DNA from: Acidimicrobiales bacterium | Lineage (GTDB): Bacteria; Actinomycetota; Acidimicrobiia; Acidimicrobiales; Aldehydirespiratoraceae | Direction: 5' to 3' | Assembly (NCBI GenBank): GCA_965214945.1 | Contig: OZ244029.1 | Span: 872,533-936,532 of the forward strand | DNA length: 64,000 bases | In this document: positions 6,564-64,000 of the stretch, one piece after another | How the letters are laid out: each line of letters starts with the position of its first letter | Position numbering within the stretch: the first letter of the stretch is position 1 | The notes under the pieces: generated by a model | The model's input: the letters and a program-made list of their open reading frames with translations, nothing else | What the model was told of the DNA's origin: nothing | Database searches by the model: none | Made by a program: the position numbers and the translations under genes

Positions 6564-9500
6564 TGGCTGCTGCTAACCGCCGACGCATCCCTGCCACCAG
6601 CAACGTGTCGGAACTTCATCGACGGTGGCTGGAGCTGGTCGACATCGAAGGTCCTTTTCTGGCCATCCCGCCACTCAAGAGAGTTTGGCCCAACGGGATC
6701 CCCAACTTTCGGTCCACCCACCCAGACCGGTTTGAAGTACTCAACCACGCCCTCAAAGACTTCGAAGCGGCTTGGGAGTCCCTGGACCGAGCTGAGGACA
6801 GCAGTAGCACGCTTGACGCGTACCGAGTGGCACGCGACAAGTGGGTCGAGACCGTATTGCGTGACGTGGTTGGTTGGGCCGAGTCCCTCGAATGGGGGGC
6901 CATTCCGGGCGTCGAGGCGCAGTCGCCGAACCGGGCAGTGACCGTGACTGCGCAAGGAGCCATTGTTGGTGCCGACGGCACGAGAGCGTTGGTACACGTC
7001 ACCGATGCGACGGAGTCGCTCCGCCAAACTCCGAACGATCTGTGGGCTGCGACACCAATAGATCGCCTCGATGCGCTTCTGCGAGAGAACGATGTCGAGA
7101 TCGGCATCGTCACTGACGGTCGATGGTGGGGACTCGTGTACGCCGGTGAGGGCCGCATGACGGCCTCCGGAGTGGTCGACGCGCTGACCTGGGTCGAGGA
7201 ACCCCGCACTCGCGATGCGTTCTTCACCCTCGCCGGGCGCCAGCACATCATCGGCGGAGATCCGACTGAGAGACTCCCGGTGCTGTTTGCCGAGTCCGTC
7301 GCCGCTGCCGAGGAGATTACCGAGGCGCTTGGTTCCCAGGTCCGCCGCGCGGTCGAGTTGCTCATCCAGTCGTTCTCCGAATCGGCCTCAGAAGCTCGTC
7401 GACTCGGCAAACCAGATCCGTTACCAGATCGAACCCACGACACCTACGAGGCTGCGGTCACCGTGATGATGCGCGTGGTTTTCCTCCTCTTCGCTGAGGA
7501 GCGAGGTCTACTTCCCTCAGGCGAGCTGTTCGAACAGGGTTACGGCATCTCCAGAGAGCTAGACCGGCTCGACGCCGAGAGCACGCCCGGCGAGGAAGTG
7601 CTCGAAGCAACATCCCTGACCTGGCACCGGTTGCTAGCCACCAGCGGCGCGCTGTACAAGGGTGCGTCCCTTGAGAACCTGCGCATGCCCGCCTATGGAG
7701 GATCACTCTTTGACCCTGACCGGTTTGCCTTCCTCACCGCAATCACGGACGAAGGCACACTCGCCGTGGTGGTGTCAGATCGGGTGATGCTCCACGTCCT
7801 CCGGTCCGTCCAAGTGGCGACCGTGAGAGGCGAAGCTCGCCGTATCTCCTTTCGCGACATCGATGTCGAGCAGATCGGCTACATCTACGAAGGCCTCCTC
7901 GGATACACTTGCAAATCGGTTGATGAGACATATCTGGGCATTCTCGGAACGATGGGCGAGGAGCCTGAAATCCCGCTCGGGACCATCGAGCAGCTCGCTA
8001 GGGAGAACACGACGCCAGAGAAGCTGGCCGGTGCGATCCGCAAGTGGGTTAAGGAGAATCAGCCTTCAGCAAAGCCTGCAACCGCTGCCAAGATCGCCAA
8101 AGCCCTCCAGGCCGATGCCGACCCGTCAGTGGTCAGTGCGCTAGCCCAGACCGTTGCCGACAACTCAGAGCTTCTCAATCGCATCGCGCCCTGGCTAGGC
8201 CTGATCCGTCGCGATCTGCGAGGCCACCCCTTCGTCTTACGGGGGGGGGGGGGTCTCCTGGTCGCAGAGACCCCGTCACGGAGGAATGCAGGGGCGCATT
8301 ACACCCCGAAGTCGCTGGCTGAAGAGGTCGTTTTCCACACGCTCGAGCCTCTCTGCTACTCGCCTGGTCCGCACCAGACGAGCGACGAAGCGTCATGGCA
8401 GCTCCGGAGTTCTGACGAGCTGCTCAATCTCAAGGTCGCCGACATCGCTTGTGGCTCTGGCGCCTTCCTTGTGGCCGCAACTCGCTACTTGGCAGATCGA
8501 GTTGTCGAAGCCTGGATCAGTGAGGAACCGGCCAACGCTCAGCGGATGGATCTCCATACGCGGGCCAAGCGTCAGGTCGTCGCGAATTGCCTCTATGGAG
8601 CTGACATCAACGACATGGCCGTCGAGATGTGCAAGCTCTCCCTCTGGCTCGTCTCCCTCGATCGCGATCTGCCCTTCTCCTTCGTCGACGACAAAATCTT
8701 CCTAGGCAACTCGCTCTTGGGGCTCACCAGCCTCGATCAGCTTCGGAAGCTTCACATTGATCCGACGCGAGTCCCTATGGACCGCAGGTTCGACATCTTT
8801 GACGTCGATGTCGATGAGATCATTCACAAAGCTGTCAGTCTTCGAGAGCATCTATTGGGCGAGATTGACGACAACGACCCGGCGCGGAGCAGCGCGACTA
8901 AGCGCCGCCAGCATAATGAGTCGAAGAGTGTTACCTCCCCACTCCGCCAGATAGCGGATGGCATCATTGCTGCGGGTCTCCCTCTAGGCGGCAAGCCCGG
9001 TAGGGAACTTGACGCAGCCTATGTAAGCCTCCGGTGCGCCGTTAGGAATGCCTATCCTGATGATGACACTCACAAGGATGCAAGAGAGTTGGAGGCTCTG
9101 ATTGTGAGAGGTCTTACTCCGGCTGTCAAGACCGACTTCAAGCGATGGCAACCGCTCCATTGGCCAATCGAGGCCCCCGACGTGATCGTTGATCGCAGTG
9201 GCTTCGATGCAATTATCGGCAATCCTCCATTCCTGGGGGGCCAGAAACTCAGCGGGGCAATGGGCAGTGAGATCAGGGACTGGTTCGTTCACGTGCTGGC
9301 GAATGGAAAACGAGGTAGCGCCGACTTAGTTGCCTACTTCTTCCTTCGGATACTTGGTCTTCTCGCAGACAATGGCACCATTGGGCTAATCGCGACCAAC
9401 ACCATTGCTCAGGGGGTCACGAGGCAAGTTGGCCTTGACCAGATTGTGGATCAGGGATTGACCATCATGCGTTCGATCCAGAGCAGGCCATGGCCGGCAA

Positions 9501-10636
9501 CAAGCGCGAGCCTGGAGTTCGCCGCGGTCTGGGGTACCCAAAGCTCTGTTCTTTCAAGTGGGCTCCGCGTCAGTGACGGCGTACCGGTTGCCAAGATCTC
9601 GACATTCCTTGAGCCTGCAGGTCGGATTGAACAGGGGCCCGAGAAGCTTGTTCAGAACAAGAATGTTGTGTTCCAAGGATGCATCGTTTTGGGCAGCGGA
9701 TTTATTGTCGATCCGGAGGAGGCTATGGGATGGATCCAGAACGATCCATCCAACAAGGAAGTTCTCTTTCCTTACCTCAGCGGCGATGATCTTAATTCCC
9801 GGCCCAACTGCTCTGCATCTCGCTGGGTCATAGACTTTGCTGAAAGGACGGAGGAAGCGGCGCGCAAGTATGAAGGGCCGTTCAATAGAGTGGCTGAGAC
9901 CGTCCTGCCTGAGCGCAAAGGCAAGAACGATTCTGGAGCTCGGAAGTATTGGTGGCGCTTTCTTCGGCCACGACCAGCCCTCCGCTCGGCGATCGACGGA
10001 CTCAATGAAGTCATCGTCATTGCAGGTGTCAGCAAGACGGTCATGCCCGGAAGAGTGAATACTGGGACGGTCTTCCCCCACCACCTTGTAGTGTTCGCAT
10101 CTGAGTCATATTCGTTGCAGGCCTGCTTGTCGTCAAGCATCCACCAGATGTGGGCAATCATGTATGGGTCGACGATGGGATCCGGTCCGAGATACACCCC
10201 GGAACGCTGCTTCAAGCCCTTTCCATTGCCACCCGAGTCGGAAGCGTTGGCATCTATGGGAAGGATTCTTCATGGGGAGCGACGTGAGATCATGTTGCGC
10301 CGCCAATTGGGACTCACCGGTCTCTATAACTTGGTCAACAGTCCTGAGATCGGTGCCGAAGCTGACCCCGATGTTGCCCGAATGCGCCAGATCCACATCG
10401 AGCTTGATGAGGTTGTGATGGATGCCTACGGGTGGCCAGATGTCGCACTCGATCATGGCCATCACACGTATCGGCAGATGGAGCGGTGGACTGTCAGTCC
10501 GACTGCCCGGGTCGAGATACTCGACCGTCTCCTGGAGGAGAATCACCGTCGGGCTTCTAAGGAGTCGCCGAAGCCCAGAGCGATGAGCCACCACTCCAAG
10601 AAGGGTCGGAATGTAACAGAAGAGCTTTTCTCATGA
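6551..10636 (+). CDS. drmMI: Large Eco57I-like N6-adenine DNA methyltransferase, DISARM DrmMI
   Basis: GAHYTPKSLAEEVV, VADIACGSGAFLVAA (AdoMet motif I), YGADINDMAVEMCKLSLWL, FDAIIGNPPFLGGQK (catalytic NPPF). The start at 6551 (alternative ATG 6563) overlaps the drmD stop at 6561-6563. 1361 aa. Confidence 0.8.
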   Translation: MGELMAAANRRRIPATSNVSELHRRWLELVDIEGPFLAIPPLKRVWPNGIPNFRSTHPDRFEVLNHALKDFEAAWESLDRAEDSSSTLDAYRVARDKWVETVLRDVVGWAESLEWGAIPGVEAQSPNRAVTVTAQGAIVGADGTRALVHVTDATESLRQTPNDLWAATPIDRLDALLRENDVEIGIVTDGRWWGLVYAGEGRMTASGVVDALTWVEEPRTRDAFFTLAGRQHIIGGDPTERLPVLFAESVAAAEEITEALGSQVRRAVELLIQSFSESASEARRLGKPDPLPDRTHDTYEAAVTVMMRVVFLLFAEERGLLPSGELFEQGYGISRELDRLDAESTPGEEVLEATSLTWHRLLATSGALYKGASLENLRMPAYGGSLFDPDRFAFLTAITDEGTLAVVVSDRVMLHVLRSVQVATVRGEARRISFRDIDVEQIGYIYEGLLGYTCKSVDETYLGILGTMGEEPEIPLGTIEQLARENTTPEKLAGAIRKWVKENQPSAKPATAAKIAKALQADADPSVVSALAQTVADNSELLNRIAPWLGLIRRDLRGHPFVLRGGGGLLVAETPSRRNAGAHYTPKSLAEEVVFHTLEPLCYSPGPHQTSDEASWQLRSSDELLNLKVADIACGSGAFLVAATRYLADRVVEAWISEEPANAQRMDLHTRAKRQVVANCLYGADINDMAVEMCKLSLWLVSLDRDLPFSFVDDKIFLGNSLLGLTSLDQLRKLHIDPTRVPMDRRFDIFDVDVDEIIHKAVSLREHLLGEIDDNDPARSSATKRRQHNESKSVTSPLRQIADGIIAAGLPLGGKPGRELDAAYVSLRCAVRNAYPDDDTHKDARELEALIVRGLTPAVKTDFKRWQPLHWPIEAPDVIVDRSGFDAIIGNPPFLGGQKLSGAMGSEIRDWFVHVLANGKRGSADLVAYFFLRILGLLADNGTIGLIATNTIAQGVTRQVGLDQIVDQGLTIMRSIQSRPWPATSASLEFAAVWGTQSSVLSSGLRVSDGVPVAKISTFLEPAGRIEQGPEKLVQNKNVVFQGCIVLGSGFIVDPEEAMGWIQNDPSNKEVLFPYLSGDDLNSRPNCSASRWVIDFAERTEEAARKYEGPFNRVAETVLPERKGKNDSGARKYWWRFLRPRPALRSAIDGLNEVIVIAGVSKTVMPGRVNTGTVFPHHLVVFASESYSLQACLSSSIHQMWAIMYGSTMGSGPRYTPERCFKPFPLPPESEALASMGRILHGERREIMLRRQLGLTGLYNLVNSPEIGAEADPDVARMRQIHIELDEVVMDAYGWPDVALDHGHHTYRQMERWTVSPTARVEILDRLLEENHRRASKESPKPRAMSHHSKKGRNVTEELFS
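8241..8253 (+). repeat. G13 homopolymer tract inside drmMI (currently in frame, encodes GGGG)
   Basis: Counted directly: ttcgtcttac + 13 g + tctcctg. Translation across it is FVLRGGGGLLVAETPSRRNAGAHYTP. Confidence 0.9.
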
Positions 10637-13600
10637 CTGATGCGTCTGCTTCGGTGGGTTCTCAGACCAGTTACGACTTGCGATTCGAGTTAGACGGTTC
10701 GTCCTTCGCTGTGCGAGAGAATCTTGTCGACATCCTGGAACGCGAGCTGCTAGGGCCGATTCACGGATCAGAGGAGGTGCTTCCTATCAGCCCTCGGTCC
10801 CAATACCTGGTTGGTCACGTTGCTCCGGTGAAGCTCACCTCCGACGCAGCCAGTGAGGCGGTTGATTCTGGCTCAGAGGATCGCGGCGAGCTGATCGAGG
10901 TTCGTCTGGACACAACCGCGTTGGCCGAAGTTCCCGGTGTGCCAGCGTTTGCAGCTGATGACCAGAAAGCCGAGACCGAGGACGATGATGCCGAGGACCG
11001 CGCACCGAAGCAAGGCCTCATGATCCCGGCGTCGATGGGAATGCGCTTCCAGGTTCCCGCCGATTTGGAGTCGTTCACGGTATCGGCCTCATGGGGAACG
11101 TACGAGACCATTGAGACGGATCAGGTGACCAAGTCGGGACGTCCTGTTCGCCATTACAAGCGGATCCCGGTGGAGGAAGCGAGGTTAATTAGGTTGGCGG
11201 ATCTGGTTGCTGGCAGAACGAAGATCGTGGAGCTTCAGGATTCTGTTTGCCTTCGCCTTGACCGTTATGACGACAAGATACACGATCGGGTGCTAGTCGA
11301 GATCGCCCTGTGCAACGATCGCGAGACCCCGGACTCCATCCCGATAAGCATGTGGATGTTTCAGACCAAGCTCCGGGTAGACGCTGGCGGGGCGGAAGTG
11401 TTTTTGCCGGTGCGTGACGTGCTCGAACAGGACTGGCCAGAGCCCGACGACGAGGTGCAACAGCTCGACCTCCAATATCGAGACCGTCTGGAGTATGCGG
11501 TTGGGCGCACCTGCTCCGTGGACTGGGAGGTGCGCCAAGGATCGCGGCGGGCGACCGAAGTGTCGACGACCTGGCTCCCGATAGCTGAGACACCGCAGAC
11601 GCGGGCTCCGGACCGTGACAGGTCCATGTTGTCGATGGACGAGCTCGCCACCGTCACGCCGGCCAAGTTGCGCACCGGCCTAAGACCGCTGGTGGACGGC
11701 TATTGTGAATGGCTCGATCAACAGGAATCGAGAGCTAAGAAGCTGCCCGAGCACTGGCACGAGACCTGTGAGCAGGTCCTTTTGGAAGCTCGTCAGGCTC
11801 ACCAACGTCTTGCCGACGGGTTGGAGCACGTTGCGACCGAGCCCGAAGCGCTGCGTTGCTTCCGATTCATGAACCGGGTGATGCGTGACCAACGGATCGC
11901 TTCGCAAGTTGCCGAAGAGCGAGCGTCGGACTCATCGGTCACGATCGAGCAGGCCAGGCAAAGGGTGGACGCGCTGAGTGCCGGCGTGGCTTCGTGGCGC
12001 CCTTTCCAGTTGGCCTTCATTCTCATGCAACTCGAAGCGCTCACCGAGCCCACGACCGCCATCCGCAGCGCAGAGCATCAGGCCCGAGTCGAGTTGCTGT
12101 TCTTTCCGACGGGAGGCGGCAAAACCGAGGCCTACCTGGGTCTCGCTGCCTATGCCTTCGCGACCCGCCGCCGGCAGGGAGTTGTCGAGTCGGCCGAGGG
12201 ACCGCTGGACGGAGGCCTTGGTGTTGCGGTGCTGATGCGCTACACGCTGCGGCTGCTGACTGCGCAGCAGTTTCAGCGGGCAACGGCGCTTGTGTGCGCA
12301 GCAGAGCTAGCTCGCCGCGAGGACGAAGCGACCTGGGGCACAGAGCCATTCCGCATCGGTCTGTGGGTCGGGACCGATGTGAGCCCTAAGTGGTTCGAGG
12401 AAGCAGACAAGCAGCTCACCAGGGCCAACGAGTACGGCTCGCATCGCTTGACTGTCCTGCAGATTCAGCGCTGCCCGTGGTGCGGAACCCCGATCGCGGC
12501 AGCCCAGATCAAGGCCGACGCCACGCAGCGGCGGGTGTTCGTGTACTGCGGAGACGAGCTCGCCCGATGCCCGTTCGCCAAGGGCGGGGCCGTCGACGAG
12601 GGCCTGCCGGTGCTCACTGTCGACGAGGAGATATACCGTCTCGCTCCCGCGTTCGTCATCGCGACGGTGGACAAGTTCGCCCGCTTGGCCCGCGAGGGTG
12701 CAGCAGCGTCCCTGTTCGGCTATGTCGCCCGCCGCTGCGGTCGCCACGGCTACGTCCATCAGGACTATGCTGGGTGCAGCATCAGCAGAGCGCACCCGGC
12801 GGTCAAGGACGGTGATCGCATCGTCCATCCGCAGGCCACTGTGCGGCCTGTGGGGCGACTGCGGCCGCCGGACCTCATCATCCAGGACGAGCTGCACCTC
12901 ATCACCGGTGCGCTCGGCACGTCAGTCGGCCTGTTCGAGGTCGCGGTCGAGACTCTCGCCTCGTGGGAGACCGCCGACGGCAAGCCTGTGCGACCGATGA
13001 TCGTCGCCTCGACGGCAACGGTGCGCAATGCCCACGAGCAGGTGCGAGGCCTCTATGGGCGCCAAGTCCAGATCTTCCCGCCCCAGGTGCTCGATGCTGC
13101 CGACACCTACTTCTCCCAAGAGGTGCCGATCGACCGCGCCAACCCTGGGCGCCGCTATCTGGGCGTCAGCGCTCAAGGAGTCCGCCTTTCGAGCGCCGAG
13201 ATCCGCGTGGCCGAGGTCTTGCTCTCCGCGGGGCAACTGCTCTTCGACGAAGCCGGCGAGGCAGCCGACCCGTACATGACGCTGGTCGGGTACTTCAACG
13301 CAACCCGGGAGCTGGCGGGCATGGCCCGCTACATGGCTGATGACGTCGCCAACCGAGTCGGCAACCCGCGTATGGGCTCCGGCTTTCCCCGCAGGTACGG
13401 CACCGGCTTTGGAAGTTTGTCCATCGCGGAGCTCACCTCACGCATCGCTTCCGCCGAGATCGGCCGCACCCTCGACCGACTCGGGCTCGAGTTCGATCCC
13501 GACTTCGACGCTACCCAGCAACGCCTGGACCGCATCAAAGCCGCAAACGCCGGCAAGAAGCGGCCCATCCGCACGAACATCCCCTTCGACGTGGTGCTGG

Positions 13601-14367
13601 CAACCTCGATGCTCGGGGTCGGCGTCGACGTCCAGCGGCTCGGCCTCATGCTGGTGGTCGGCCAGCCGAAGAACACCGCCGAGTACATCCAGGCGTCCTC
13701 CCGCGTGGGACGCGAAGCATCCGGTCGCCCCGGCCTTGTGGTGGCGCTGGGCAACTGGGCGCGGCCGCGAGACCTTGCGCACTTCGAGCAGTTCCGGCAC
13801 TACCACGAGACGTTCTACGCCCAGGTCGAGGCTCAGTCGGTCACACCGTTCTCGACGACCTCGCTCGATCGGGGCCTTGATGGCCTGCTCGTGAGCGTCG
13901 CTCGCGTGGTGCAAGCGACCGAGGCCAAGGGTCTGTCGCCCGAGCAGGACGCCTGGCGGATCCGCGACCAGCGGGCCTCAATCGACGCCATCTGCGATCG
14001 GCTCAGGAAGCGGATCGCCGTGGCGGCCCGAGACGACGCCGCCTCCAACCATGCCGGCGATGTGCTCGTCAACCGCATCGATCGATGGAACGAGCGCGCC
14101 AAGCGAGCAACGGAGATGAACAAGACTCTGGTGTACGAACGGATCGGGCAGGGAGAGGAGTTCCTCCCTCTGATCATCAGCCCCGAGAACGCCAAGGCCA
14201 GCGCCGGCGATTCCCTCCAAGCCCCGTTCGTGATCGCGAACTCCATGCGCGAAGTGCAGCCTGAGATCAATGTGCTCGTCAGCCCCCTAGCGGAGCGGCT
14301 GTTCATGCTGAGGCCTGATGGCGCGCCCGAGTGGACCCTCCCGGTTGGAGAGGACGACGATGACTGA
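10633..14367 (+). CDS. drmA: DExH helicase, DISARM DrmA
   Basis: LLFFPTGGGKTEAYLGL (Walker A), DLIIQDELHLITGALGT (DExH), ATSMLGVGVDVQRLGLMLVVGQPKNTAEYIQASSRVGR (motifs V-VI), and a Zn-ribbon-like CPWCGTPI...YCGDELARCPF. ATGA overlap with the drmMI stop. Confidence 0.8.
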   Translation: MTDASASVGSQTSYDLRFELDGSSFAVRENLVDILERELLGPIHGSEEVLPISPRSQYLVGHVAPVKLTSDAASEAVDSGSEDRGELIEVRLDTTALAEVPGVPAFAADDQKAETEDDDAEDRAPKQGLMIPASMGMRFQVPADLESFTVSASWGTYETIETDQVTKSGRPVRHYKRIPVEEARLIRLADLVAGRTKIVELQDSVCLRLDRYDDKIHDRVLVEIALCNDRETPDSIPISMWMFQTKLRVDAGGAEVFLPVRDVLEQDWPEPDDEVQQLDLQYRDRLEYAVGRTCSVDWEVRQGSRRATEVSTTWLPIAETPQTRAPDRDRSMLSMDELATVTPAKLRTGLRPLVDGYCEWLDQQESRAKKLPEHWHETCEQVLLEARQAHQRLADGLEHVATEPEALRCFRFMNRVMRDQRIASQVAEERASDSSVTIEQARQRVDALSAGVASWRPFQLAFILMQLEALTEPTTAIRSAEHQARVELLFFPTGGGKTEAYLGLAAYAFATRRRQGVVESAEGPLDGGLGVAVLMRYTLRLLTAQQFQRATALVCAAELARREDEATWGTEPFRIGLWVGTDVSPKWFEEADKQLTRANEYGSHRLTVLQIQRCPWCGTPIAAAQIKADATQRRVFVYCGDELARCPFAKGGAVDEGLPVLTVDEEIYRLAPAFVIATVDKFARLAREGAAASLFGYVARRCGRHGYVHQDYAGCSISRAHPAVKDGDRIVHPQATVRPVGRLRPPDLIIQDELHLITGALGTSVGLFEVAVETLASWETADGKPVRPMIVASTATVRNAHEQVRGLYGRQVQIFPPQVLDAADTYFSQEVPIDRANPGRRYLGVSAQGVRLSSAEIRVAEVLLSAGQLLFDEAGEAADPYMTLVGYFNATRELAGMARYMADDVANRVGNPRMGSGFPRRYGTGFGSLSIAELTSRIASAEIGRTLDRLGLEFDPDFDATQQRLDRIKAANAGKKRPIRTNIPFDVVLATSMLGVGVDVQRLGLMLVVGQPKNTAEYIQASSRVGREASGRPGLVVALGNWARPRDLAHFEQFRHYHETFYAQVEAQSVTPFSTTSLDRGLDGLLVSVARVVQATEAKGLSPEQDAWRIRDQRASIDAICDRLRKRIAVAARDDAASNHAGDVLVNRIDRWNERAKRATEMNKTLVYERIGQGEEFLPLIISPENAKASAGDSLQAPFVIANSMREVQPEINVLVSPLAERLFMLRPDGAPEWTLPVGEDDDD

Positions 14368-16429
14368 CCCGCTCACCGGTCCAGAAGCTCCGAGCATGAT
14401 GCTGCATGATCCAGGTCAGACGCTCGACCCGCTGGCGGACGCCGAAGACGCGGCAGTCAAGAATCGGGCCAAGGTCGGTTCAGCTCGGCCTTCCTCGCTC
14501 CTCTACACCTACGGGCCGGGCGCCATCATGGATCTTCCGGGCTTCTCGGTCATGCCCGCCGGGCTTGGCGACTGGGAGCCCATCTGGCAGCGACGAGAGT
14601 CGGTCCCCACGATCACCGAGCCCCGTCTGCTCGACGTGGTGCGACTCCACCTGGGACCGCAGGTAGACGCTCTGCGCCCTTTCCCGTGGCAGCCGAAGAC
14701 GAGCCCCTCGTCTTCTGACGGCAGTGATCTCGGGATACCAGCCCGTGTCTTTCCCCAGTGGCTGCGGTGCACCGGCTGTGACTACCTCGGCCCGATTTCA
14801 CGCTTTCGCTACACCAACACCCACCCATTCCGTCCCGACCTGGCCCAGTTCACCCACGCCCCCTGCCCCGGCCGCGGCGGACAACGCCGCACCTCGAGCC
14901 GGAAGGAGCGCGGGAGGCCGGCGGTTCCGGCCCAACACCTGCTGACCTGCGTCAACGGCCATCTCGACGAGTTCCCCTACGACCTCTGGGTCCACCAAGG
15001 CGACAGATGCCCGAAAGTCGAAGTGCCGAGCCTGAAGATGCGCGACGCCAATGTCGGCGGCTCCAATGTCGGCTCCACCATCATCTGCGAAGCCTGCAGA
15101 GCGAGGCGGGGAATGGCGGAGGCACAAGGACGGGCAGGCCGCGAGAAGCTCCCGCAGAAGTGCCGCGGGCGCCACCCTCACCTGAACGCCTTCGACGGCT
15201 CCTGCGATGCGCAGCCGGCGCTGATCATGATGGGTGCGTCGAACCTCTGGTTCCCTTCGATCCAGTCGATCATCGTTATGCCCCGGACTGAGGCCGAAGG
15301 GCAGTCCGCCCTCGCTGACAGCTTGCGGCTCCAACTGGACGTTGAGCAGATTCGCCGATCTGGCCAGGATCTTGACTGCATCGTGGCGCTTGCCAGGGCT
15401 ATGCGGGGCCTTGACACGGCTGACATCACCGACCAGGAGCTCAAGGAGGCGATTTCGGAAGTACTGGCACCGGCAGACACCGAGGAGGATCGACAGGAGA
15501 AGCTGGCGGCCTGGGATCCCATCGAACTGCTCGTGCCGGAGTGGGACTACCTGCAGAAGCCGGCCCTGTTCCCGCAGCAGGAGAACACCAGCGGCCTGAT
15601 GGTCACCGAGGAGCAGCGCCACGCAGACCTCGACACCCGCATCACACGGGTGGTCGCCGTCAACCAGATGAAGAAGGTCAACGCCGTCCTCGGTTTCACG
15701 AGGCTCGACGAGATGGACCGGGTCAATGATCTGGCGAGCCGCCTGGTCAAGCTGACCCGCGACGCCCGACCGACCTGGGTACCGGCGACCGAAGACCGCG
15801 GCGAGGGTGTCTTCCTGCAGCTCGACCCCGAGAAGGTCGCTGCCTGGGAGGAGAAGATTCTCGTCTCGGACTTGTGGGACGCCCATCGCAAGGCACACCG
15901 GCGCAATTTTCAGCGGCGATTCTCCGAGACCGCGAAGCTCGTCGACCCCGACGTGCGCCTGGCCGCGCCGCGGTATTGGCTGCTGCACACCCTCGCTCAC
16001 GTGCTGATCCGCGAGATGGCCATGTCGTGCGGCTACGGCGCTGCGAGCCTCACCGAGCGCATCTATGGTTGGGCTTCATCGCCGCAGCGAGACGCGGCGG
16101 CAGGCCTCCTGATCTGCACGACCGCTTCGGACAGCGAAGGGACCCTTGGCGGTCTGGTCGCCCTGTCTGAGCCTTCTAGGCTGCAGGGGCTCATCAGATC
16201 GGCACTGCGGCGAGCCGGCAGATGCTCGTCTGATCCGGTCTGTGCCATGCGCACTCCGAGCGACCCCGAGGACTTTCTGCACGGAGCGGCTTGTCACTGC
16301 TGTGCGTTCGCATCGGAGACCTCGTGCGAGAGGGCCAACCGGTTCCTCGACCGCCGCCTGCTGCTGACCCTCCCATCCGCCGATGGCGCCACCGTGCCGG
16401 GCTTCTTCGGGACGGTCGATGCCATCTGA
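14360..16429 (+). CDS. drmB: DUF1998-domain protein, DISARM DrmB
   Basis: C-terminal DUF1998-type motif HGAACHCCAFASETSCERANRFLDRRLL, plus Cys clusters CTGCDY and CPGRGG...CVNGH. The ATG at 14360 overlaps the drmA stop (14365-14367); the ORF track opens at 14318. Confidence 0.75.
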   Translation: MTDPLTGPEAPSMMLHDPGQTLDPLADAEDAAVKNRAKVGSARPSSLLYTYGPGAIMDLPGFSVMPAGLGDWEPIWQRRESVPTITEPRLLDVVRLHLGPQVDALRPFPWQPKTSPSSSDGSDLGIPARVFPQWLRCTGCDYLGPISRFRYTNTHPFRPDLAQFTHAPCPGRGGQRRTSSRKERGRPAVPAQHLLTCVNGHLDEFPYDLWVHQGDRCPKVEVPSLKMRDANVGGSNVGSTIICEACRARRGMAEAQGRAGREKLPQKCRGRHPHLNAFDGSCDAQPALIMMGASNLWFPSIQSIIVMPRTEAEGQSALADSLRLQLDVEQIRRSGQDLDCIVALARAMRGLDTADITDQELKEAISEVLAPADTEEDRQEKLAAWDPIELLVPEWDYLQKPALFPQQENTSGLMVTEEQRHADLDTRITRVVAVNQMKKVNAVLGFTRLDEMDRVNDLASRLVKLTRDARPTWVPATEDRGEGVFLQLDPEKVAAWEEKILVSDLWDAHRKAHRRNFQRRFSETAKLVDPDVRLAAPRYWLLHTLAHVLIREMAMSCGYGAASLTERIYGWASSPQRDAAAGLLICTTASDSEGTLGGLVALSEPSRLQGLIRSALRRAGRCSSDPVCAMRTPSDPEDFLHGAACHCCAFASETSCERANRFLDRRLLLTLPSADGATVPGFFGTVDAI

Positions 16430-17122
16430 TCCGTTCGCTGATCTGGGGACCTTCCTCACCGCAACCGAGGCAGTCGGGATCGCAGTCCAGCTCTCCACCG
16501 GTCAGCACTCATCAGTCGCTCTCCGGGAGGTGAATCCAGCCCGTCGCGAGAAAGCCAAGGAACTGATGAGCACCGCCGGACTCGGACACGATGACGTCGA
16601 CCGATCCTCAGCCGTCCTTCATGCGATCGCGAGAGCCAAGAGTCTCGGGAGTCAGTTGACACCGGTGTGGATGATGCCCGGGAACGAGGCAACAGCCGGC
16701 CGTCTCACCGGTGAGTTCACCGGCTCATCCAAGCAGCTAGCCAGTCGGTGACGTGCGCGACTTATAACTTCGAGCCCACGTCGCAGATGTGGACAGCGCT
16801 TCGGGAAGCGGCCGATCAGCCTGGGATCGTCGTCGCCGTCTACCTCGACGCCGACAAAGCGGACGCTGGGAAAGTCAAGAGCCAGCTTGGCCGCGCATCC
16901 GTATACCAATCCGCCGTCTTGCCTGATGGCAACCAGGTAGTCAGCCACGCCAAGTTCGTCGTCATCGACCATGAGATCGTCCTCGTCACGAGCGCGAACT
17001 TCTCATTCAGCGCCGAGAACCGCAACGTCGAGTTCGGCTTGCTCGTCCAAGATGCCGGACTTGCTCGTTCAGTTGAAATGACGATGGAGTCGAAGCAGGG
17101 CACCCTCTACGAATCAGCGTAG
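16419..17122 (+). pseudogene. drmC: PLD-family nuclease DrmC, split by one frame change
   Basis: HxK(x)4D motif in SHAKFVVIDHEIVLVTSANFS. The N-terminal half reads in the frame of ATG 16419 and stops at 16749-16751. The C-terminal half reads in another frame that is open from 16715 (VHRLIQAASQSVTCATYNFEPTS). The switch lies between 16715 and 16748, near the short repeat tcaccgg-tgagt-tcaccgg. The start overlaps the drmB stop by 11 nt. Confidence 0.7.
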
Positions 17123-17244
17123 AGAGCTTGGGGGTCCGGGAGGCTGTCAACAAGGAGAGCTGTCGGTCCAGGCGATCGTCTCCGAGGCGTCGCATGTGGC
17201 CTCCACACCCGACGGGTGGCGACGCTGAAGCCGAGGAGCGGCAC

Positions 17245-39000: not shown

Positions 39001-39166
39001 GGTACTGTACGTACCCCTAGGCGCTGATCTGCCAGGCCTCTACGGACGCGCGGCAACCCTTTGTTCTGGAAGGCTGCCTCACGAGAATCGCAATGAACAG
39101 ATACTCGAGTATCGGAACATCCCCGCAGACGTAGCCGCACACCTCTCGCGCCTACTCATGAACTAA
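36074..39166 (+). CDS. Large uncharacterised protein, DruH-like by position and size (Druantia type III partner)
   Basis: A 1030-aa ORF with coding-like composition and no motif I recognise. It sits immediately upstream of the DruE-like gene (13-nt gap). The start is uncertain (ATG 36074 or ATG 36095). Confidence 0.45.
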
Positions 39167-39179
39167 GGATAGGACTCGT

Positions 39180-45333: not shown

Positions 45334-45618
45334 ACGGCAACCGAGATCCGTTGCCAACCCAGAGCACCAAATCGGATGAGGCCTGAGGCGTCATGACCAC
45401 GGATCCCGCGGCCGTGCCGCCCATCAAATTACGCAGAGGGTTACGGCTACGTCGACCAGCCCAATAGGGTTAGCCGTCCTCCTGGCCTGAGTCTGAGGCG
45501 GGTACTGATGATGTGAACCTATAGCGGAGCGGGCCAGGCACACATACCCACATCAATCCCGGGTGTCACAGCTCAGCGGTACGGTCGCACTCATCTATTC
45601 AATGTGAGAGGGATACCT

Positions 45619-47910: not shown

Positions 47911-47941
47911 GAATTGTGACCATACCCATTAGTCCGTCCAA

Positions 47942-57010: not shown

Positions 57011-57409
57011 GCGTGCGCGGCGGCGAGTCGACGCCCTTGTCACCTCCTCGATCCCAGGGTGCTGGTCCGACGGTGTGCGCATCACGGGCGGCTCGGGAAT
57101 CGTCGCTGCGCCTGCGCTGTTAGGCGACGGACATCCAGCAGCCTGCAGGGACCGCACACACATCGGGATTGTGGTCATCTAGGAGATCCAGGTCGGAACG
57201 CTGGGCACGCCCGACCGCTAGGCGATCCTGGCCTGGCTGGCGTCGGGGCAAGCCTCGCCTTCATTATCGTGGCGGCATGCGTAGGCTATTATCGTGCTGC
57301 TGAGTGAGGTACCGGCCTCATCTCGACCCAAGACCTCCCGAAATGACGCAGCAGGCACGGAACTCAAGGCGCCTGACCGCGGTCGTCGTGTGGGCAGCTT
57401 TCTGAGGTT

Positions 57410-57428
57410 GGGGGGGGGGGGGGGGGGG
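57410..57428 (+). repeat. G19 homopolymer tract
   Basis: Counted directly (1+10+8 g). It encodes GGGGGG in the frame of 57294. It is flanked by an imperfect 36-nt duplication (ggcacggaactcaaggcgcctgaccgcggtcgtcgt / ggcacagagttcaaggcgcctgactgcggtcatcgt). Confidence 0.9.
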
Positions 57429-58358
57429 TACCTGACGGCACAGAGTTCAAGGCGCCTGACTGCGGTCATCGTTGCCATCGCCGCTGTCGGCACGGCCTGG
57501 ATTCTCGTGCAGACGTACCACGGTGCCTGCGTCACTTCCGACTCCGTCTTCTACTTATCCGCGGCCGAAAATCTTGCGGCCGGTAAGGGCCTGGTCGGCT
57601 TCAGAGGAAACGAGCTGTATTGGTTTCCGCCCGGATACTCGATTAGTCTGGCCGGATTCGAGCTTGCCGGCATCGGAGCACAGGAAGGCGGACGCTACCT
57701 GAACGCAGTCCTGTTTGGCGCCACGATCCTTATCTCGGGCCTGTGGCTCAAGACACTGTGCCGGTCGGGCACGGTTGTGCTGGCGGGCGTGCTCACGACC
57801 GCCAGCACCAAGACATTCTACCACAGCGCTGGCTGTCTCCACTCCGAGCCCTTGTATCTGCTGCTCACGCTCAGCTCTTTGATCCTGGTCAGCGAGGCTG
57901 TCAAGCATGACAGAGCAGGCCGTCGGACGCAGTGGATGCTGCTGGCAGCAGGCCTGCTGTCAGGGCTGTCAGTAGCAACCCGCTACGTCGGCATTGTGAC
58001 CACAGTGAGCAGCTTCTTGCTCCTCCTGTTCTGGCGCCCGTCGCGCACAGCTCTGCGGACCCGGCTGCAGGCTGCGACTATGTTCGGCTTGGCAGCATCG
58101 CTGCCGGTCGTGGCCGTCTTGATCCGCAATCTGGCCGGCACAGGCAGACTTCTCGCAGATCGCCTATATGATAGCACCGGTCGCACCGGTCACTCCATGC
58201 TGGACGCAATCGAGACCATCATCAGGTTTCATTTTATTAGGTTTCAAGTTCATCCCACTTTCACGATCAGTCATCCCACTTTCGCGATCGGATGGATCAT
58301 GCTGTTCACAGCCGTTCTGGCCTACTGGGTGGCTGGAGGACGGCCAACTCCTCACCCT

Positions 58359-58372
58359 CCCCCCCCCCCCCC
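58359..58372 (+). repeat. C14 homopolymer tract at the frame break of paralogue 1
   Basis: Counted directly: ctcaccct + 14 c + gctggctcgg. Confidence 0.9.
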
Positions 58373-59082
58373 GCTGGCTCGGCATCGAGCGCAGCGCCCC
58401 ATTAGCGGCATTTGTTCTGCTCTATGTCGTCACCCTCGTCCTTACTCAGCCATGGAACTCCGGACCGGTTGTCCCTCGTCTTTATATGCCGGCTGCGATT
58501 GCCTTGGTCTTCGTGGGCTGCGAGTCACTGGACGCAGCAATCAGACGCAGCAGCCCCTCGAGGGCACTACGCGAGCCAAGGCTGAACCTTCTGTTGGCCT
58601 ACACGGGCGCTATAATCGTTCTCGTGCTGGCTGCTTCGTTTTACGTCAACGTGAACAGAGCGCGCTACGGGCTCGCTCAGGGCCATCCCGCCGGCGACGT
58701 TGTCGCCGGAATTGTTGAGTCGCCTGTGATCGCTCATCTCCAGCACCACGCCACAGACGCCCGCCTCTACAGCAACCGACCGGCGGGCGTCTACTTGCTG
58801 ACAGGCATCCAGCCGTTGCTACACTTGCCGGCGTGGTGGCCCTGGACTTCGCCGTTGACGGATTCGGACTGTTTCGATCACCTCACCGCCTTCTCGAACC
58901 GTGCAGGCCAGTCAGAGAGCAGAAAGCTCCAAATCGCATGGTTCGACGAACTCAGGAGAGGCGATGCCAGGTTCTATTGCGACATCCCGGCCCTCGCATC
59001 CGGCTCCTCGGAGCTGGAGCTGGTCGAGGAGTTCCCCGACGGAGCGATCTACCGATTCGAGCCCTCCACCTGAGATGCAGAG

Positions 59083-59460
59083 ACGGACTGTATCGGTTTC
59101 TGCCTGGATACTCGATCAGTCTGGCCGGATTCGAGCTTGTCGACATCGGGACACAAGAAGGCGGCCGCTGACTGAACGCGGCCATGTTCGGCACTACGAT
59201 CGTCGTCGTTTTGGCCCGCAATCTCGCCGAGACAGGTAAGCTTTTCAGAGTTCGCATGGATGACAACTCCGGCCACTCTATGCTCGATGCAGTCGAAGAT
59301 CATCATCAGGCTTCACGGTCCGAGTCAGCCCACCTCCGCGATCACATGGATTATGCTGCTCGCAGCCGCTCTGACCTGCTGGACAGCTGGAGGCAGCCAA
59401 ATTCTGCCCCCCCCCCTCTCTCTCGCAGTAAGCTAGGCATATACTGCAGCGCGCCGTTCG
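59083..59460 (+). pseudogene. Internally deleted fragment of the same membrane-protein family (paralogue 2)
   Basis: Aligns to paralogue 1 at LYRFLPGYSISLAGFELVDIGTQEGGR (then a stop). It then jumps about 400 nt to LARNLAETGKL...GHSMLDAVE, and carries a C10 tract at the homologous position. Confidence 0.65.
59407..59416 (+). repeat. C10 homopolymer tract in the fragment
   Basis: Counted directly: attctg + 10 c + tctctc. Confidence 0.9.
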
Positions 59461-59673
59461 TGGTGGTTCGTGGCCCTGGAACGCTGCTGCCAGTCCCAGC
59501 TGCGGCCGAAGCCTCCGGCGAGCCGATCGAGATTCCCGAGTATCTCTGCCAGGAGGGCTACGACGCCCAGGGGCACGATCTGGCGGGCTGGTTCCAGTTC
59601 CAGCCTTGGTGGGACGAACTGACCGAGAGGAGCCAGAGTTCCTGGAGAGCCAGAGTTCCTGGAATAGACTCCC

Positions 59674-61270
59674 ATGCTTAGACCGGCACCTGCTTCGAGG
59701 TTGCCTGCGTTCGTCTCAAGAGCACTGCCCCTCCTCATAGGGGGCATAGCTCTTTTGGCAACGATCGTGATCCTGATCCGCACGCGCTATGGGCCGGTAA
59801 TCACCTACGATTCTTTTAGGTACATTTCGACAGCGGAGAATTTGGCTAATGGTCAAGGCTTGATCCACTTTCACGGGGGGCCGCTTGTCAAGTTTCCTCC
59901 TGGCTATCCGATGATGCTGGCGCCGTTTGAGTTGTTTGGGATTGGTGCTAGGGAGACCAGCCGCTTTCTTAATGCTCTGCTTTTCGGCTCGACTGTGCTG
60001 ATTTCGGGGCTTTGGCTTAGAAGCGTCTGTAGATCCGTCGGTCTTGTGATTGTGGCTACCCTCGCAATCGCAGGTCCGACGACATATCACAGGGTTGCCA
60101 GTGCATACCTCTCTGAGCCGTTGTACATGTTTGTCACGGTCGGCTCGCTGATCTTGATCTGCGAGTTGCTCAGACGTAGCGGAGACCCAGCTTCTGAGAT
60201 ATCCCCCCCCCCCCCTAGGGATGTTGCTGGCAGCCGGGCTCCTGGCGGGCCTCGCTGCCTTGACTCGCTACGTCGGCGTGGCACTGATCGTCAGCAGCAC
60301 CTCTGTTCTCTTGCTGGCCTATGCCCGCAGAAAAGCATCTTGGATGCAGCGCCTGCTGCCTGCGGTCCTCTTCGGTGCGGTCGGTATTCTGCCGATCAGC
60401 GCCGTTCTGGTTCGCAATTTGGCTGTCAGTGGCACCTTGACGGGAGATCGCTCGAACGAAAGCACCGGCCTTTCGTTCCCGGAAGCAGCTCAGGAGCTGC
60501 TCGCTCTGTTCGCACACTCGGAGTTTAGGGTTGCGACGATTCTCGTGTTGTCCGCGGTCTTGGCTGCGATCGGATTTCGCACGCGGATACTGTGGCGAGC
60601 GCTCACAGCTGCCCGCACCATACCGTTCGCCGCTTTTGCGGTGGTCCACTCGCTGGCGATCTTGGCCACCCAGACATGGACCAGCGAGCCTCCGAGCCCT
60701 CGGTTCTTCCTGCCTGCCTATGTGGCGCTGCTGTTCGTGTTCAGCGAAGCCTTGGATGCTGCGCTTCGACAATCAAAGAGACCTGAGGCAGCCACTTCGC
60801 TTGCTCACAGGTTTGCGTTGATAGCAGTTGTCTTGTTGTGCATGATTCCGCTCAGGAGCATGTGGAACGACAATTATCAGGAGGCTCGCAAAGGATGGGA
60901 GCATGACTCTCTCATGAGCGACTTCCCCGACCTTCGCGACTCGCCGATGGTCGACTATTTGGGGCAGAACGTTCTTGATTGTGAACAGGATTGCGATAGA
61001 GTGATCACCAATAGCCTGTGGGCCGCATTTTGGATATTGGGTTTGCAGCCGCTGGAACTTCTTGTTTCTGGTGATGAAGACTATTGCTTAGACTGGCTGA
61101 GTCAGTATCAGTATTCTCGCCCTCGCTACGTTGTCTGGTTTGCCAATGTTGGCCCGCATGATACCGGTGAATACTGCGATATTCCGTCTCTCGCGTCCAG
61201 CAGTCCGAAGCTGGAGCTGCGTCAGGAGTTCTCTGACGGAGCGGTCTATTGGTTCGACCCTTCTGCCTAG
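59674..61270 (+). pseudogene. GT-C-like membrane protein, paralogue 3; frame broken at a C13 tract
   Basis: YDSFRYISTAENLANGQGL and FPPGYPMMLAPF. The frame of 59674 enters the C13 tract (60203-60215). The conserved continuation MLLAAGLLAGLAALTRYVG...EFSDGAVYWFDPSA is in the frame of ORF 60221. C12 or C15 would give one ORF. Confidence 0.6.
60203..60215 (+). repeat. C13 homopolymer tract at the frame break of paralogue 3
   Basis: Counted directly: gagatat + 13 c + taggg. It sits at a different position in the protein from the tract shared by paralogues 1, 2 and 4. Confidence 0.9.
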
Positions 61271-61598
61271 ACCGTCTGCCATCAGATGGTGCCCAAAGGA
61301 GTGCGTGATGGCACCACAGAGAAAGCCATAACCGACTACCTGACCGTTCACCAACCTGGTGACCTCGGAGATCCGCCGCAGGTTCTCCGAGCGGTCCGGG
61401 GCGCTTGAGGGTGTGGGCGTTCGCCGGATGCGGCCATGCTCGCGCGAACGCCCTACCCGCTGGAGCGCAGGGGTGCAGGCGCGACTGCCCAGAGGAACGC
61501 GACAGCCCGGACGAGCACAACAGCGCGACAGCCCGGACGAGCAGAGGCAGGGCCGCCCGCAAAGGCCCGGCGGGCGCCCTGGCGTAGAATCTGCGCTG

Positions 61599-61998
61599 AT
61601 GTGCGCAGCGGCGACGACCGATTATCGGCTCAGCCATATCGAGCAGCTCGAGTCCGAGAGCATCGAGATCATCCGCGAGGTCGTCGCCCAGTCCGACCGC
61701 CCGGTGATGATGTACTCGATCGGCAAGGACAGCTCGGTGATGCTGCACCTCGCCCGCAAGGCCTTCTACCCGGCCCGGCCGCCGTTCCGCTGCTGCACAT
61801 CGACACCACCTGGAAGTTCCGCGAGATGATCGACTTCCGCGACCGCACAGCCTCGAAGACCGGCCTGGAGCTGATAGTGCACACCAACCCCGGGCCTGGC
61901 CGCAAGGCGTCAACCCCTTCGACCACGACCCCGCCTACTACACCGGCGTGCTGAAGACCCAGGCCCTCAAGCAGGGCGGCTTCGATGCGGCATTCGGG
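61599..61998 (+). pseudogene. cysD: Sulfate adenylyltransferase subunit 2 (CysD) pseudogene
   Basis: [48 protein letters not shown], then [18 protein letters not shown] in a second frame, then [31 protein letters not shown] in a third. The remainder of cysD is deleted. Confidence 0.8.
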
Positions 61999-62890
61999 TG
62001 GTTCGACGGCCCGCCGCTGCTGGAGCACCTGGAGACGGTCGACGTGGCCGCCGATGCCGATCTCGGCGTCTTTCGCATGGCGGTCCTGAACGTGATCCGA
62101 GCCGACGGCGACTTCCGCGGGCTGGCAGGCACGGTCGCCTCGGGGGTGGTCCGCCCCGGCGACGAGCTGGTGGCGCTATCCTCGGGAGTGGAGTCTGCCG
62201 TGGAGCGGATCGTGACCTTCGACGGCGACCTCGATGCCGCCGGGCCGGGTCGTGCGGTCGCCTTGTCGTTGAGCGGCGAGATCGACGTGAGCCGCGGCGA
62301 CTGGCTGGTGTCGGATCGCAGTGCGCCGCTGCGCTCCCACGACGTAGAGGCCATGGTCGTGTGGATGAGCGCGGCGTCTCCGCTGACCGCAAGCTGCTGT
62401 TCGACCCGTACGCGGTCAACCGCCGGACCGGCTCGTTCATCTTCGTAGACCGCCTTAGCAACGCCACCGTCGGCGCGGGCATGATCCTGGGCGCCTTGTT
62501 GTCGTGGGACCGCACGCCGCAGTCCAGCCTGGTGCGCCGGGTGTCGGGCATCGAGGCCCAGGAGCGCTCGATCGCCACGGCCAGCAGCCCTGCACGGTGC
62601 TGATCACCGGCCTGACCGCGGCGGGCAAGTCGACCATCGCCACGGCCCTGGAGCGCGAGCTCTTCGACCGGGGCAAGGTGACGGTGCGCCTCGACGGCGA
62701 GAACGTGCGCCTGGGCATCAGCCGCGACCTCGGCTTCAGCGCGCCGGAGAGATCGGGAGAACCTGCGGCGCATATCGGAGGTCGCCAGGCTGGTCAACGG
62801 CCAGGGGCTGATCGCCATCGCCGCCGTGGTCGCCCCGGACGCCGAGGTGCGCTCGCGTGCCAGGGACCTGCTCACGCCGGAGCGCTTCAT
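61999..62890 (+). pseudogene. cysNC: CysN/CysC (sulfate adenylyltransferase subunit 1 / APS kinase) pseudogene remnant
   Basis: Joined directly to the cysD stub at FDAAFG|WFDGPPLLEHLETV; the GTPase domain is missing. FRMAVLNVIR...FRGLAGTVASGVVRPGD. APS kinase P-loop CTVLITGLTAAGKSTIATALE. At least three further frame changes. Truncated at about 62890 (LLTPERF). Confidence 0.75.
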
Positions 62891-62903
62891 GACTTGCATT
62901 CTT

Positions 62904-64000
62904 TCAGCGCGAGGAGTCGAAGCGGTAGATCGCCCCGTCTCCGAACTCCTGGGTCAGCTCCAGCTCTGAGGAGCCCGCTGCCAGGGCCGGGATGTCGCAG
63001 GAGGTCCTGCTGCTGCCAGCCCTGGGCTCGTCGAACCAAGCGATTTGGAGACTCCTGCTCTCCGACCCGTTTGCGTAGCTTGCGAAAGCAGTGAGCCGGT
63101 CGAGACAGTCTGCTTCCGTCAACGGCGAATTCCCGGGCCACCATCCCGGCAGGTTTCTCGTCGGCTGGATGCCCGTCAGCAGGTAGACGCCCATCGCCCG
63201 GTTGCTGTAGAGGCTCTCGTCTGTGGCGTGGTTCTCCAGGTGAGTGATCACAGGCGATTCGGCGATTCCCTCGATGATGGCGCCGGGATAGTGGCCGAGA
63301 GCGAGCGACTCGCGTGCCCTGAGCACGTTGTCGTATGACGAGGAGGCCAGAGCGAGGACGACAGTCGCGCTCACGCCTGTCAACAGCAAGTTCCTCGCAA
63401 GACCGCTCGACCCTTCCTGCCGCGCTGTGCTGTGCATTGCGGTGTCCAGCGCCTCGCAGCCCACGAAGACCAAGGCGATCGCGGCGGGCAGGTACAGGCG
63501 GGCATTGACCGGCCCTGGGTGGAAGGGTTGGATGAGCACGAGAGTCGCCGCATAGAGCAGCGCAAACGTGGCGAACGGGGCACTGCGCTCGATGCCGTGC
63601 TTGTTTCCGGGGGGGGGTCTGGCGATGTGGTGCCTTCCGGCTGTCAAGCCGATCAGGGCGGCGGCGAGCAGCATGATCAATCCAATTGAGAGGGTGGGCC
63701 TGCTCGGACCTTGAAGAGTGATGATGGTCTCGAGTGCGTCCAGCATGGTATGGTCGGTGCCGCGGCCCAGGCGATCCCCGAGGAGTCGGCCCGTTACTGC
63801 TAGGTTGCGGGCCAGGACGGCCACTACCAGGACGGCGACGACCGGCAGAGATGCTGCCAGGCCGAACACCGTCGCCGCCTGCAGCCGGGACCACATCGAT
63901 GTTCGCCCCGGTCGCCAAAGCAGAAGGAGCCCGAAACTGCTTGCTACGGCCACGACGCCTACGTAGCGAACGACTTCGGACAACCCCGCCAGCAGCCCTG
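62904..64000 (-). CDS. GT-C-like membrane protein, paralogue 4; 5-prime end outside the window, reads through a 9-nt tract in frame
   Basis: The minus-strand frame is open to nt 64000 (GLLAGLSEVVRYVGVV...). The tract encodes the RPPPG region in TAGRHHIARPPPGNKHGIERSAPFATFALLY, homologous to the paralogue 1 junction. The C-terminus EFGDGAIYRFDSSR matches the other copies. Confidence 0.65.
   Translation of the reverse strand, partial: GLLAGLSEVVRYVGVVAVASSFGLLLLWRPGRTSMWSRLQAATVFGLAASLPVVAVLVVAVLARNLAVTGRLLGDRLGRGTDHTMLDALETIITLQGPSRPTLSIGLIMLLAAALIGLTAGRHHIARPPPGNKHGIERSAPFATFALLYAATLVLIQPFHPGPVNARLYLPAAIALVFVGCEALDTAMHSTARQEGSSGLARNLLLTGVSATVVLALASSSYDNVLRARESLALGHYPGAIIEGIAESPVITHLENHATDESLYSNRAMGVYLLTGIQPTRNLPGWWPGNSPLTEADCLDRLTAFASYANGSESRSLQIAWFDEPRAGSSRTSCDIPALAAGSSELELTQEFGDGAIYRFDSSR
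63609..63617 (-). repeat. G9 (C9 on the coding strand) homopolymer tract in paralogue 4
   Basis: Counted directly: ttgtttcc + 9 g + tctgg. Confidence 0.9.

Follow-up and report, generated by a model that had tools for sequence, protein, structure and literature searches.

The stretch of DNA analysed here, hereafter the window, comprises 64,000 bp of an Acidimicrobiales genome (61.7% GC; GenBank assembly GCA_965214945.1, contig OZ244029.1, positions 872,533 to 936,532) and contains six homopolymers of at least 8 nt, all of them G or C and 9–19 nt long. One lies in drmMI, the DNA methylase gene of a class 1 DISARM phage-defence operon, and the others belong to a family of multi-pass membrane proteins encoded at 57.3–64 kb, which are predicted to be membrane glycosyltransferases of the GT-C fold. 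All six are located within coding sequence or at its 5′ edge. An initial annotation had reported the same six runs, and each was found in the sequence with the position and length given there.

Homopolymer tracts of the window and their host genes

The run-length distribution of G and C in the window is bimodal: 276 runs of 4 nt, 44 of 5 nt and 6 of 6 nt, with counts dropping about five-fold with each extra base, are followed by none of 7 or 8 nt and then by the six tracts. The longest other run is 6 nt, not 7 as previously noted, and the tract-free remainder is about 55 kb rather than about 25 kb. Six runs of at least 9 nt were observed against 2.25 expected for independent and identically distributed (iid) bases, 0.115 under an order-2 and 0.015 under an order-4 Markov model, both trained with the tracts masked; for runs of at least 13 nt, the counts were 4 observed and 0.02 expected (iid). 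Runs of at least 6 nt are strongly depleted (12 observed, 76.5 expected, iid), and therefore the genome normally avoids homopolymers and the long tracts stand out further. The tracts are confined to 9.2 kb, or 14% of the window, with a post hoc chance probability of about 9e-6. No other class of simple-sequence repeat was found in the window, the tract genes are not set off by a sharp island boundary in base composition, and a promoter and terminator scan of 56.5–64 kb was uninformative.

The first tract-bearing locus is a complete class 1 DISARM system in which drmC is frameshifted. All five genes lie on the + strand, arranged canonically and with PADLOC E-values between 0 and 1e-53: drmD, an SNF2-type helicase (3276–6563; PADLOC DrmD E = 0, 1267 bits; Pfam SNF2-rel_dom and Helicase_C); drmMI, an N6-adenine DNA methylase (6551–10636; PADLOC DrmMI E = 0, 1612 bits; Pfam Eco57I, MmeI_Mtase, N6_Mtase and MmeI_TRD); the helicase gene drmA (10633–14367; PADLOC DrmA 9.8e-301); drmB, with MZB and DUF1998 features (14318–16429; PADLOC DrmB 7.4e-69; Pfam MZB); and drmC, a PLD nuclease gene (16383–17122; PADLOC DrmC) that occupies two reading frames. 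Model positions 2–102 of DrmC match 16383–16751 and positions 113–239 match 16748–17122, and the frame junction near 16720–16750 contains no homopolymer. It has been reported that drmC is dispensable for DISARM defence (bioRxiv 10.1101/2021.12.28.474362). A BREX/PglX identity of the methylase was considered and rejected, as the best PADLOC models were DrmMI and, for the neighbours, DrmD, DrmA, DrmB and DrmC; the PADLOC search of the window proteins gave no match to PglZ or BrxC. The earlier statement that a methylase carries a tract is thus sharpened to the DrmMI enzyme of class 1 DISARM.

The G13 tract of drmMI (8241–8253, + strand; codons 564–568 of 1361) encodes R-G-G-G-G just 5′ of the methylase catalytic motifs, and the gene is in frame (ON) as assembled. 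In silico editing of the tract left the gene open only at G10, G13 and G16, all other lengths truncating it at codons 589–718. Among 118 DrmMI homologues, namely those with the local motif, the spacing from R.DLR to ETPSR is 14 residues in 117 and 15 in the window protein alone, which is also the one sequence of the 118 with a run of four glycines at the tract site, where the usual sequence is VLxGGL. These comparisons make G13 a lineage-specific tract one codon above the family norm, as would be expected from a G10 that had slipped by three. Within the set of methylase genes and fragments of the window (DrmMI, a DruM fragment and a type II methylase), DrmMI alone carries a tract; the single feature of a phasevarion observed here is this repeat in a methylase gene.

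The remaining tracts lie in a family that has 11 close relatives among 5.8 billion proteins. An AlphaFold2 model of an intact member, P0005 (539 aa), was of moderate quality (pLDDT 69.6) and showed about 11 long helices and, C-terminal to them, a domain of mixed alpha/beta structure. The top 30 Foldseek matches of this model in the PDB were all GT-C enzymes, including AglB, AftA/B/D, ArnT, STT3, ALG9, PMT and DPY19 (TM-score 0.35–0.53), and the match probability collapsed beyond them. At the level of sequence, the first paralogue of the window matched Pfam PMT (PF02366) weakly (20.1 bits, under the 22.7-bit cut-off), and more distant homologues bear PF13231/PF02366 (PMT/PMT_2) and the name GT39. 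An Asp directly after the first transmembrane helix (TM1) is invariant in 15 of 15 aligned members (D46 in the first sequence of the alignment, D39 in P0005); it appears to be the conserved acidic residue of the first extracytoplasmic loop and may be catalytic. The model therefore assigns the family to predicted GT-C fold membrane glycosyltransferases, which most likely add sugars from lipid-linked donors onto an envelope glycan or protein. The initial annotation had placed the tracts in a methylase and in surface-protein paralogues; the concentration in these gene classes was borne out within the window, and the second class is better described as transferases likely to decorate the envelope than as classic surface proteins.

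Copies of the family were mapped by a family hidden Markov model (HMM) on six-frame translations. Gene 1 (57294–59073, + strand) is OFF, its two HMM matches, 57432–58364 in frame 2 (HMM 5–302) and 58363–59067 in frame 0 (HMM 300–533), meeting at a C14 tract (58359–58372, + strand; loop site B), and editing this tract in silico to C13 or C16 restores a full-length open frame. An internally deleted paralogue remnant follows (59082–59416, + strand; HMM fragments 64–105, 230–271 and 262–299) and ends in a C10 tract at site B (59407–59416, + strand). Gene 3 (59674–61270, + strand) is OFF at a C13 tract (60203–60215, + strand; loop site A), where the HMM match passes from frame 0 (59695–60210) to frame 1 (60215–61264), and is restored at C12 or C15; it is the orthologue, at 63% identity, of a gene at 19783–21393 of a related chromosome (L001, introduced below). 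Gene 4 (62904–64000, − strand), which extends past the window end, is the window's copy of P0005, matching the C-terminal part of that protein identically, and is ON with a tract that is C9 on the coding strand (63609–63617, − strand; G9 on the + strand) and encodes PPP at site B. The C14, C10 and C9 tracts of gene 1, the remnant and gene 4 share a position near HMM 300, in agreement with the earlier remark that three paralogues have a tract of differing length at one position, and the C13 tract falls at about HMM 170. Genome annotation of such assemblies lists the tract genes as truncated proteins of 474, 349, 347, 236 and 321 aa. Short tandem repeats were also seen in this region: a 21-nt in-frame duplication in gene 1 (58250–58289; HPTFTIS/HPTFAI), a (TC)4 directly following the C10 at 59407, and a perfect 17-nt duplication immediately 5′ of the gene 3 start codon (59630–59663).

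Gene 1 carries a second tract, G19, in its 5′ coding region (57410–57428, + strand), 4 nt 5′ of the conserved N-terminus and between two diverged copies of the first ~16 codons. The upstream copy (ATG...MTQQARNSRRLTAVVVWAAF, then a stop codon; 57343–57403, + strand) ends just before G19 and is identical to 57432–57477 at 36 of 52 aligned positions, the downstream copy having CTG for ATG. Read from a GTG at 57294, with which it is in frame as assembled, the tract encodes Gly6. In silico edits showed that G16, G19 and G22 are the only lengths that join this start to the gene 1 body, the first start at other lengths giving a 521-aa product without TM1, and every usable start codon of gene 1 lies upstream of or against G19. 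With 57294 as a putative start site, the arrangement resembles the layout of a translational switch.

Recurrence of the tracts in related genomes

A scan of reference genomes with single-protein patterns gave no match, and a scan with a tighter family alignment gave one, the Acidimicrobiales metagenome-assembled genome (MAG) chromosome OZ243946.1. Five close assemblies were compared: the window genome, OZ243946.1 (L001/L003), a second MAG, GCA_964346925.1 (L002), Logan SRR23261226 (L057) and JGI 3300007082 (L058). Each close relative has a tandem array of 3–8 paralogues in a conserved neighbourhood that includes genes for a dienelactone hydrolase (DLH), a class II aldolase, a GT2 glycosyltransferase and cysD/cysN/cysC. 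Tracts of 8–14 C or G recur at three loop positions, near HMM 89 (poly-G), 170 (poly-C, site A) and 300 (poly-C, site B). This recurrence at the same protein positions, in the five close assemblies and in a more distant lineage, supports the contingency-locus reading first proposed for the window. A metagenome scan returned distant GT-C homologues only, at 24–42% identity, which served as a negative control: the 446 kb around 53 distant homologues contain one G/C run of at least 8 nt. Over the sequence compared, which comprised the 64 kb of the window, some 70 kb from the close loci and the 446 kb from the distant ones, the tracts were concentrated in particular gene classes.

The five close assemblies contain 16 in-coding tracts, 8 in frame (ON) and 8 at junctions between two frames (OFF). 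A 1-nt edit of the tract alone gave a full-length open reading frame (ORF) in the homologous frame for all 8 OFF copies, and the copies that have no tract were intact in 10 of 10 cases (Fisher p = 0.008). Tracts are present in independent assemblies of related genomes, a comparison that supplies the independent support asked for earlier, and their lengths differ between genomes: the tract of gene 3 is C13 and OFF in the window, C9 and ON in L001, and C10 and OFF in L002, L001 and L002 being 97% identical across the segment that carries it. Two further orthologous tracts are C10 in L001 and L002 alike. A C10 at 7605 of L001 and 5900 of L002 was at first taken here to lie upstream of a 236-aa gene; this was rejected when the HMM map placed it at site B of a split full-length paralogue.

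A more distant tract-bearing lineage is represented by L059 (ERZ19489113; 45% identity; GC 60.7%; hifiasm-meta-style contig names), which has a C8 tract at a frame junction of site B (8917–8924) and a G13 tract, in frame, at a fourth loop site (7237–7249). L057 has a C9 (9284–9292) that is intergenic, 156 nt 5′ of a paralogue ATG with stop codons between, and may be a switch of the promoter type or what remains of a lost copy. The arrays themselves differ in copy number, with 8 paralogues in L001 (6683–21387) and 6 in L002 (4978–16646), and the identity of their flanks ranges from 84% to 99.9%; the arrays therefore also evolve by duplication, deletion and recombination.

These comparisons bear on whether the proteins simply need poly-proline or poly-glycine loops, the homopolymer DNA being incidental. 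In-frame tracts do read PPP(P) or GGGG in flexible loops, as such a need would predict. However, most paralogues have no proline run at these sites (RSSP, RSLP and RSFP, for example), the extra glycine is missing from 117 of 118 DrmMI homologues, and half of the tracts are out of frame. Codon usage was likewise rejected as a cause of the tracts: CCC is used for 27% of prolines and GGG for 19% of glycines in the window, and among its 30 other genes the seven further PPP or GGG runs are written in mixed codons and contain no homopolymer above 5 nt. A structural need for such loops is accordingly a barely credible origin of the tracts.

Probable slipped-strand switching and competing explanations

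We consider it probable, at about three chances in four, that the six runs are genuine hypermutable tracts that make envelope glycosylation and DISARM methylation phase-variable by slipped-strand mispairing. In Campylobacter and other bacteria, phase variation arises from the frequent slippage of G/C homopolymers of at least 8 nt (PMC8355987). MutS/MutL is absent from almost all Actinobacteria (PMC5290159), and the NucS repair of Actinobacteria cannot correct short indels (PMC8228993). In the proposed mechanism, the tracts would act as frame switches. Those of the GT-C genes lie either in the N-terminal tail, where poly-G is read as Gly, or in short loops between helices, probably on the cytoplasmic side, where poly-C is read as Pro, so that gain or loss of one base would truncate the enzyme before its C-terminal helices and extracytoplasmic domain. 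Independent switching of each paralogue could then generate a population of mixed envelope glycoforms with altered phage receptors. We infer that switching in vivo is reversible and occurs at a high rate, that its target is an envelope glycan and that it confers a selective benefit, most likely evasion of phage adsorption, because the window is dense in phage-defence content.

Slippage in drmMI just 5′ of the catalytic motifs would turn DISARM self-methylation off and on, and the OFF state may weaken defence against some phages and lower the barrier to unmethylated DNA. In a Serratia class 1 DISARM system, loss of drmMI was non-toxic, caused no autoimmunity and weakened defence against some phages only (bioRxiv 10.1101/2021.12.28.474362); a DrmMI OFF state should be tolerated because this loss causes no autoimmunity.

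Several observations weigh against the switching interpretation. The closest DrmMI homologue is 74% identical, which leaves no close orthologue, and the methylase tract rests on one sequence. Tract lengths are those of the assembled consensus and uncertain by ±1 nt, as are, in consequence, individual ON and OFF calls. Every one of the six OFF tracts in the three MAG or chromosome assemblies has exactly one surplus base, and therefore homopolymers may have been systematically over-called and some OFF calls may be wrong; the two OFF tracts of L058 each lack one base. With 8 of 16 tracts ON, the fraction does not significantly exceed the one third expected for random lengths (p = 0.13) and so does not demonstrate selection for function.

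The uniform excess of one base raises the question of a sequencing or assembly artefact, either poly-G from two-colour Illumina chemistry or long-read homopolymer error, and homopolymers of at least 9 nt are error-prone on every platform. Against such an origin, the tracts occur at the same codon positions with homologous flanks in at least six assemblies that derive from separate datasets and follow differing assembler naming conventions. Some are G and others C on the assembled strand, which in every case agrees with the logic of the coding strand, where sites A and B give Pro and site C gives Gly, and ORFs of up to 1788 aa are intact elsewhere in the window, which indicates no general indel problem. 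From these sequence comparisons, error appears to be excluded as the source of the tracts themselves, but not of their exact lengths: it could shift a length by 1 nt, not create a tract. As a full account of the data, an artefact is very improbable.

The serious rival is decay, in which the tracts are real but non-adaptive mutational hot spots and the OFF copies are ordinary early pseudogenes within a cluster undergoing loss. Part of its support comes from the window itself. The cluster there has neither the GT2 nor the DLH gene, and its aldolase is reduced to a 40-aa tail (59505–59624). Beside the paralogue remnant, cysD and cysNC (sulfate activation) survive as decayed fragments in several frames (61340–62900, + strand; tblastn with L002 proteins), and drmC and the Druantia methylase are broken too. 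Genes 1 and 3 of the window may thus be en route to permanent loss. Decay is also favoured by the ON fraction given above and by L060, a sister contig of L059, which has splits at 2427 and 8914: one family copy is split by a 1-nt deletion outside any homopolymer, and another split falls on a C5 run, the degraded relic of site B. Owing to the frameshift outside a homopolymer, the statement that every frameshift of the family falls at a tract was narrowed to the five close assemblies. On the other side, the OFF copies have no lesion beyond the tract, both halves being open over about 500 codons and 1 nt sufficing for restoration; other copies and genomes, among them intact clusters, are ON at these sites; and in a genome that strongly avoids runs longer than 6 nt, the tracts are not purged but reappear at matching loops across many paralogues and a second lineage. 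We therefore regard decay as an unlikely explanation, which nevertheless has to be taken seriously.

Beyond the switching of individual genes, we tentatively propose, at slightly less than even odds, that the clade maintains by selection a combinatorial envelope glyco-code, in which arrays of 3–8 GT-C paralogues, each with a homopolymer switch of its own in one of a few conserved loops on the cytoplasmic side, are linked to sulfate activation and are paired, in the window, with a switched DISARM methylase. If this proposal is true, receptor variation and the state of defence and methylation would be stochastically diversified together against phages, and the drmMI tract would be the first homopolymer switch described for DISARM.

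Relation to known systems and genomic surroundings

The mechanism is that of the classical homopolymer contingency locus and is known; the lineage and the target families, GT-C arrays and DrmMI, are new. Homopolymer contingency loci are textbook biology in a few host-adapted, mostly low-GC pathogens. The loci of Campylobacter jejuni, Neisseria, Haemophilus and Helicobacter resemble those described here in having intragenic G/C tracts of about 8–13 nt in several surface-glycan genes, and one-base slippage there shifts the frame so that independent switches yield combinatorial glycoforms, as we propose for the arrays. The targets differ: in systems of the Campylobacter type they are mostly soluble or peripheral GT-A/GT-B transferases of low-GC host-adapted Proteobacteria, whereas here the putative targets are polytopic GT-C enzymes in tandem arrays with several recurrent tract sites per family, in uncultured Acidimicrobiales of 62–67% GC. 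The poly-G/C contingency loci of Campylobacter glycan genes have been reviewed (PMC8355987), Cj1295 being one example (PMC3068675). A literature search found no paper linking Acidimicrobiia to phase variation.

For the methylase, the nearest parallel is the Pgl system (BREX type 2) of Streptomyces coelicolor, for which a G tract in pglX is described as causing phase variation at 1e-2 to 1e-4 (Sumby and Smith 2003, as related in PMC4365076). As far as that account goes, both cases concern an actinobacterium with poly-G in a large Eco57I/MmeI-like N6-adenine methylase of a phage-defence system. The window differs in having class 1 DISARM (DrmD, DrmMI, DrmA, DrmB and DrmC) without PglZ, PglW or PglY, and the consequences of switching may differ as well. 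Programmed DNA inversions that shuffle coding segments have been found in class 1 DISARM DrmMI, and the type IIG enzyme Cj0031 has poly-G (PMC9881135). That work shows that DrmMI-type enzymes undergo programmed variation and that poly-G switches operate in related type IIG enzymes, but the DrmMI variation of that study is inversion and the one proposed here is a homopolymer on/off switch. In our literature search, inversion in DrmMI was the only programmed variation reported for DISARM, and no account of a homopolymer switch in this system turned up.

An analogy for the arrays is offered by gtrABC of Salmonella and Shigella, in which a GT2 enzyme loads a sugar onto a lipid carrier, from which a polytopic membrane transferase adds it to an envelope glycan outside the membrane. 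Expression of gtr is phase-variable through epigenetic control (Dam/OxyR) at the promoter and affects phage adsorption. The arrays have homopolymer tracts instead of promoter epigenetics, and a GT2 gene adjoins them in L001, L002 and L058 but is absent from the window. In Mycobacterium tuberculosis, reversible frameshifts in short G/C homopolymers are under diversifying selection (PMC13596474). Both lineages are Actinobacteria without indel-correcting mismatch repair; the M. tuberculosis tracts are mostly 7–9 nt and lie in metabolic and regulatory genes, whereas those of the window are 9–19 nt and lie in one paralogue family and a defence methylase.

The findings would extend contingency loci to uncultured high-GC actinobacteria known only from metagenomes, to polytopic GT-C arrays and to a DISARM methylase. 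Bet-hedging against phages by switching of surface glycans and defence may be common in environmental bacteria and readable from MAGs. Pipelines that call homopolymer frameshifts errors or pseudogenes would miss such biology, and polishing tools may erase it.

Positions 1–53120 of the window form a dense defence island. Besides DISARM, it contains a PbeC/DndD-like gene (82–1290), Druantia DruF and DruE (36074–44546) with a DruM cytosine methylase present as a fragment only on the opposite strand (34952–35422), a type II restriction-modification pair (45604–47040 and 47080–47910) and an AAA_15/NsnB-like ATPase gene (51303–53120).

Sulfur genes recur beside the arrays. The cysD/N/C genes, for synthesis of 3′-phosphoadenosine 5′-phosphosulfate (PAPS), are intact next to the array in L002 (17714–21066), L057 (11947–14203) and L058 (12654–13231); L060 encodes an arylsulfotransferase (4886–6580) and L059 an FGE-sulfatase domain protein (844–1545). 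This recurrence hints that the glycan made or modified by the arrays may be sulfated. In the window, the cysD/cysNC fragments are inverted relative to the related genomes, and the loss of a single base from a C3 run accounts for at least one of the cysD frameshifts.

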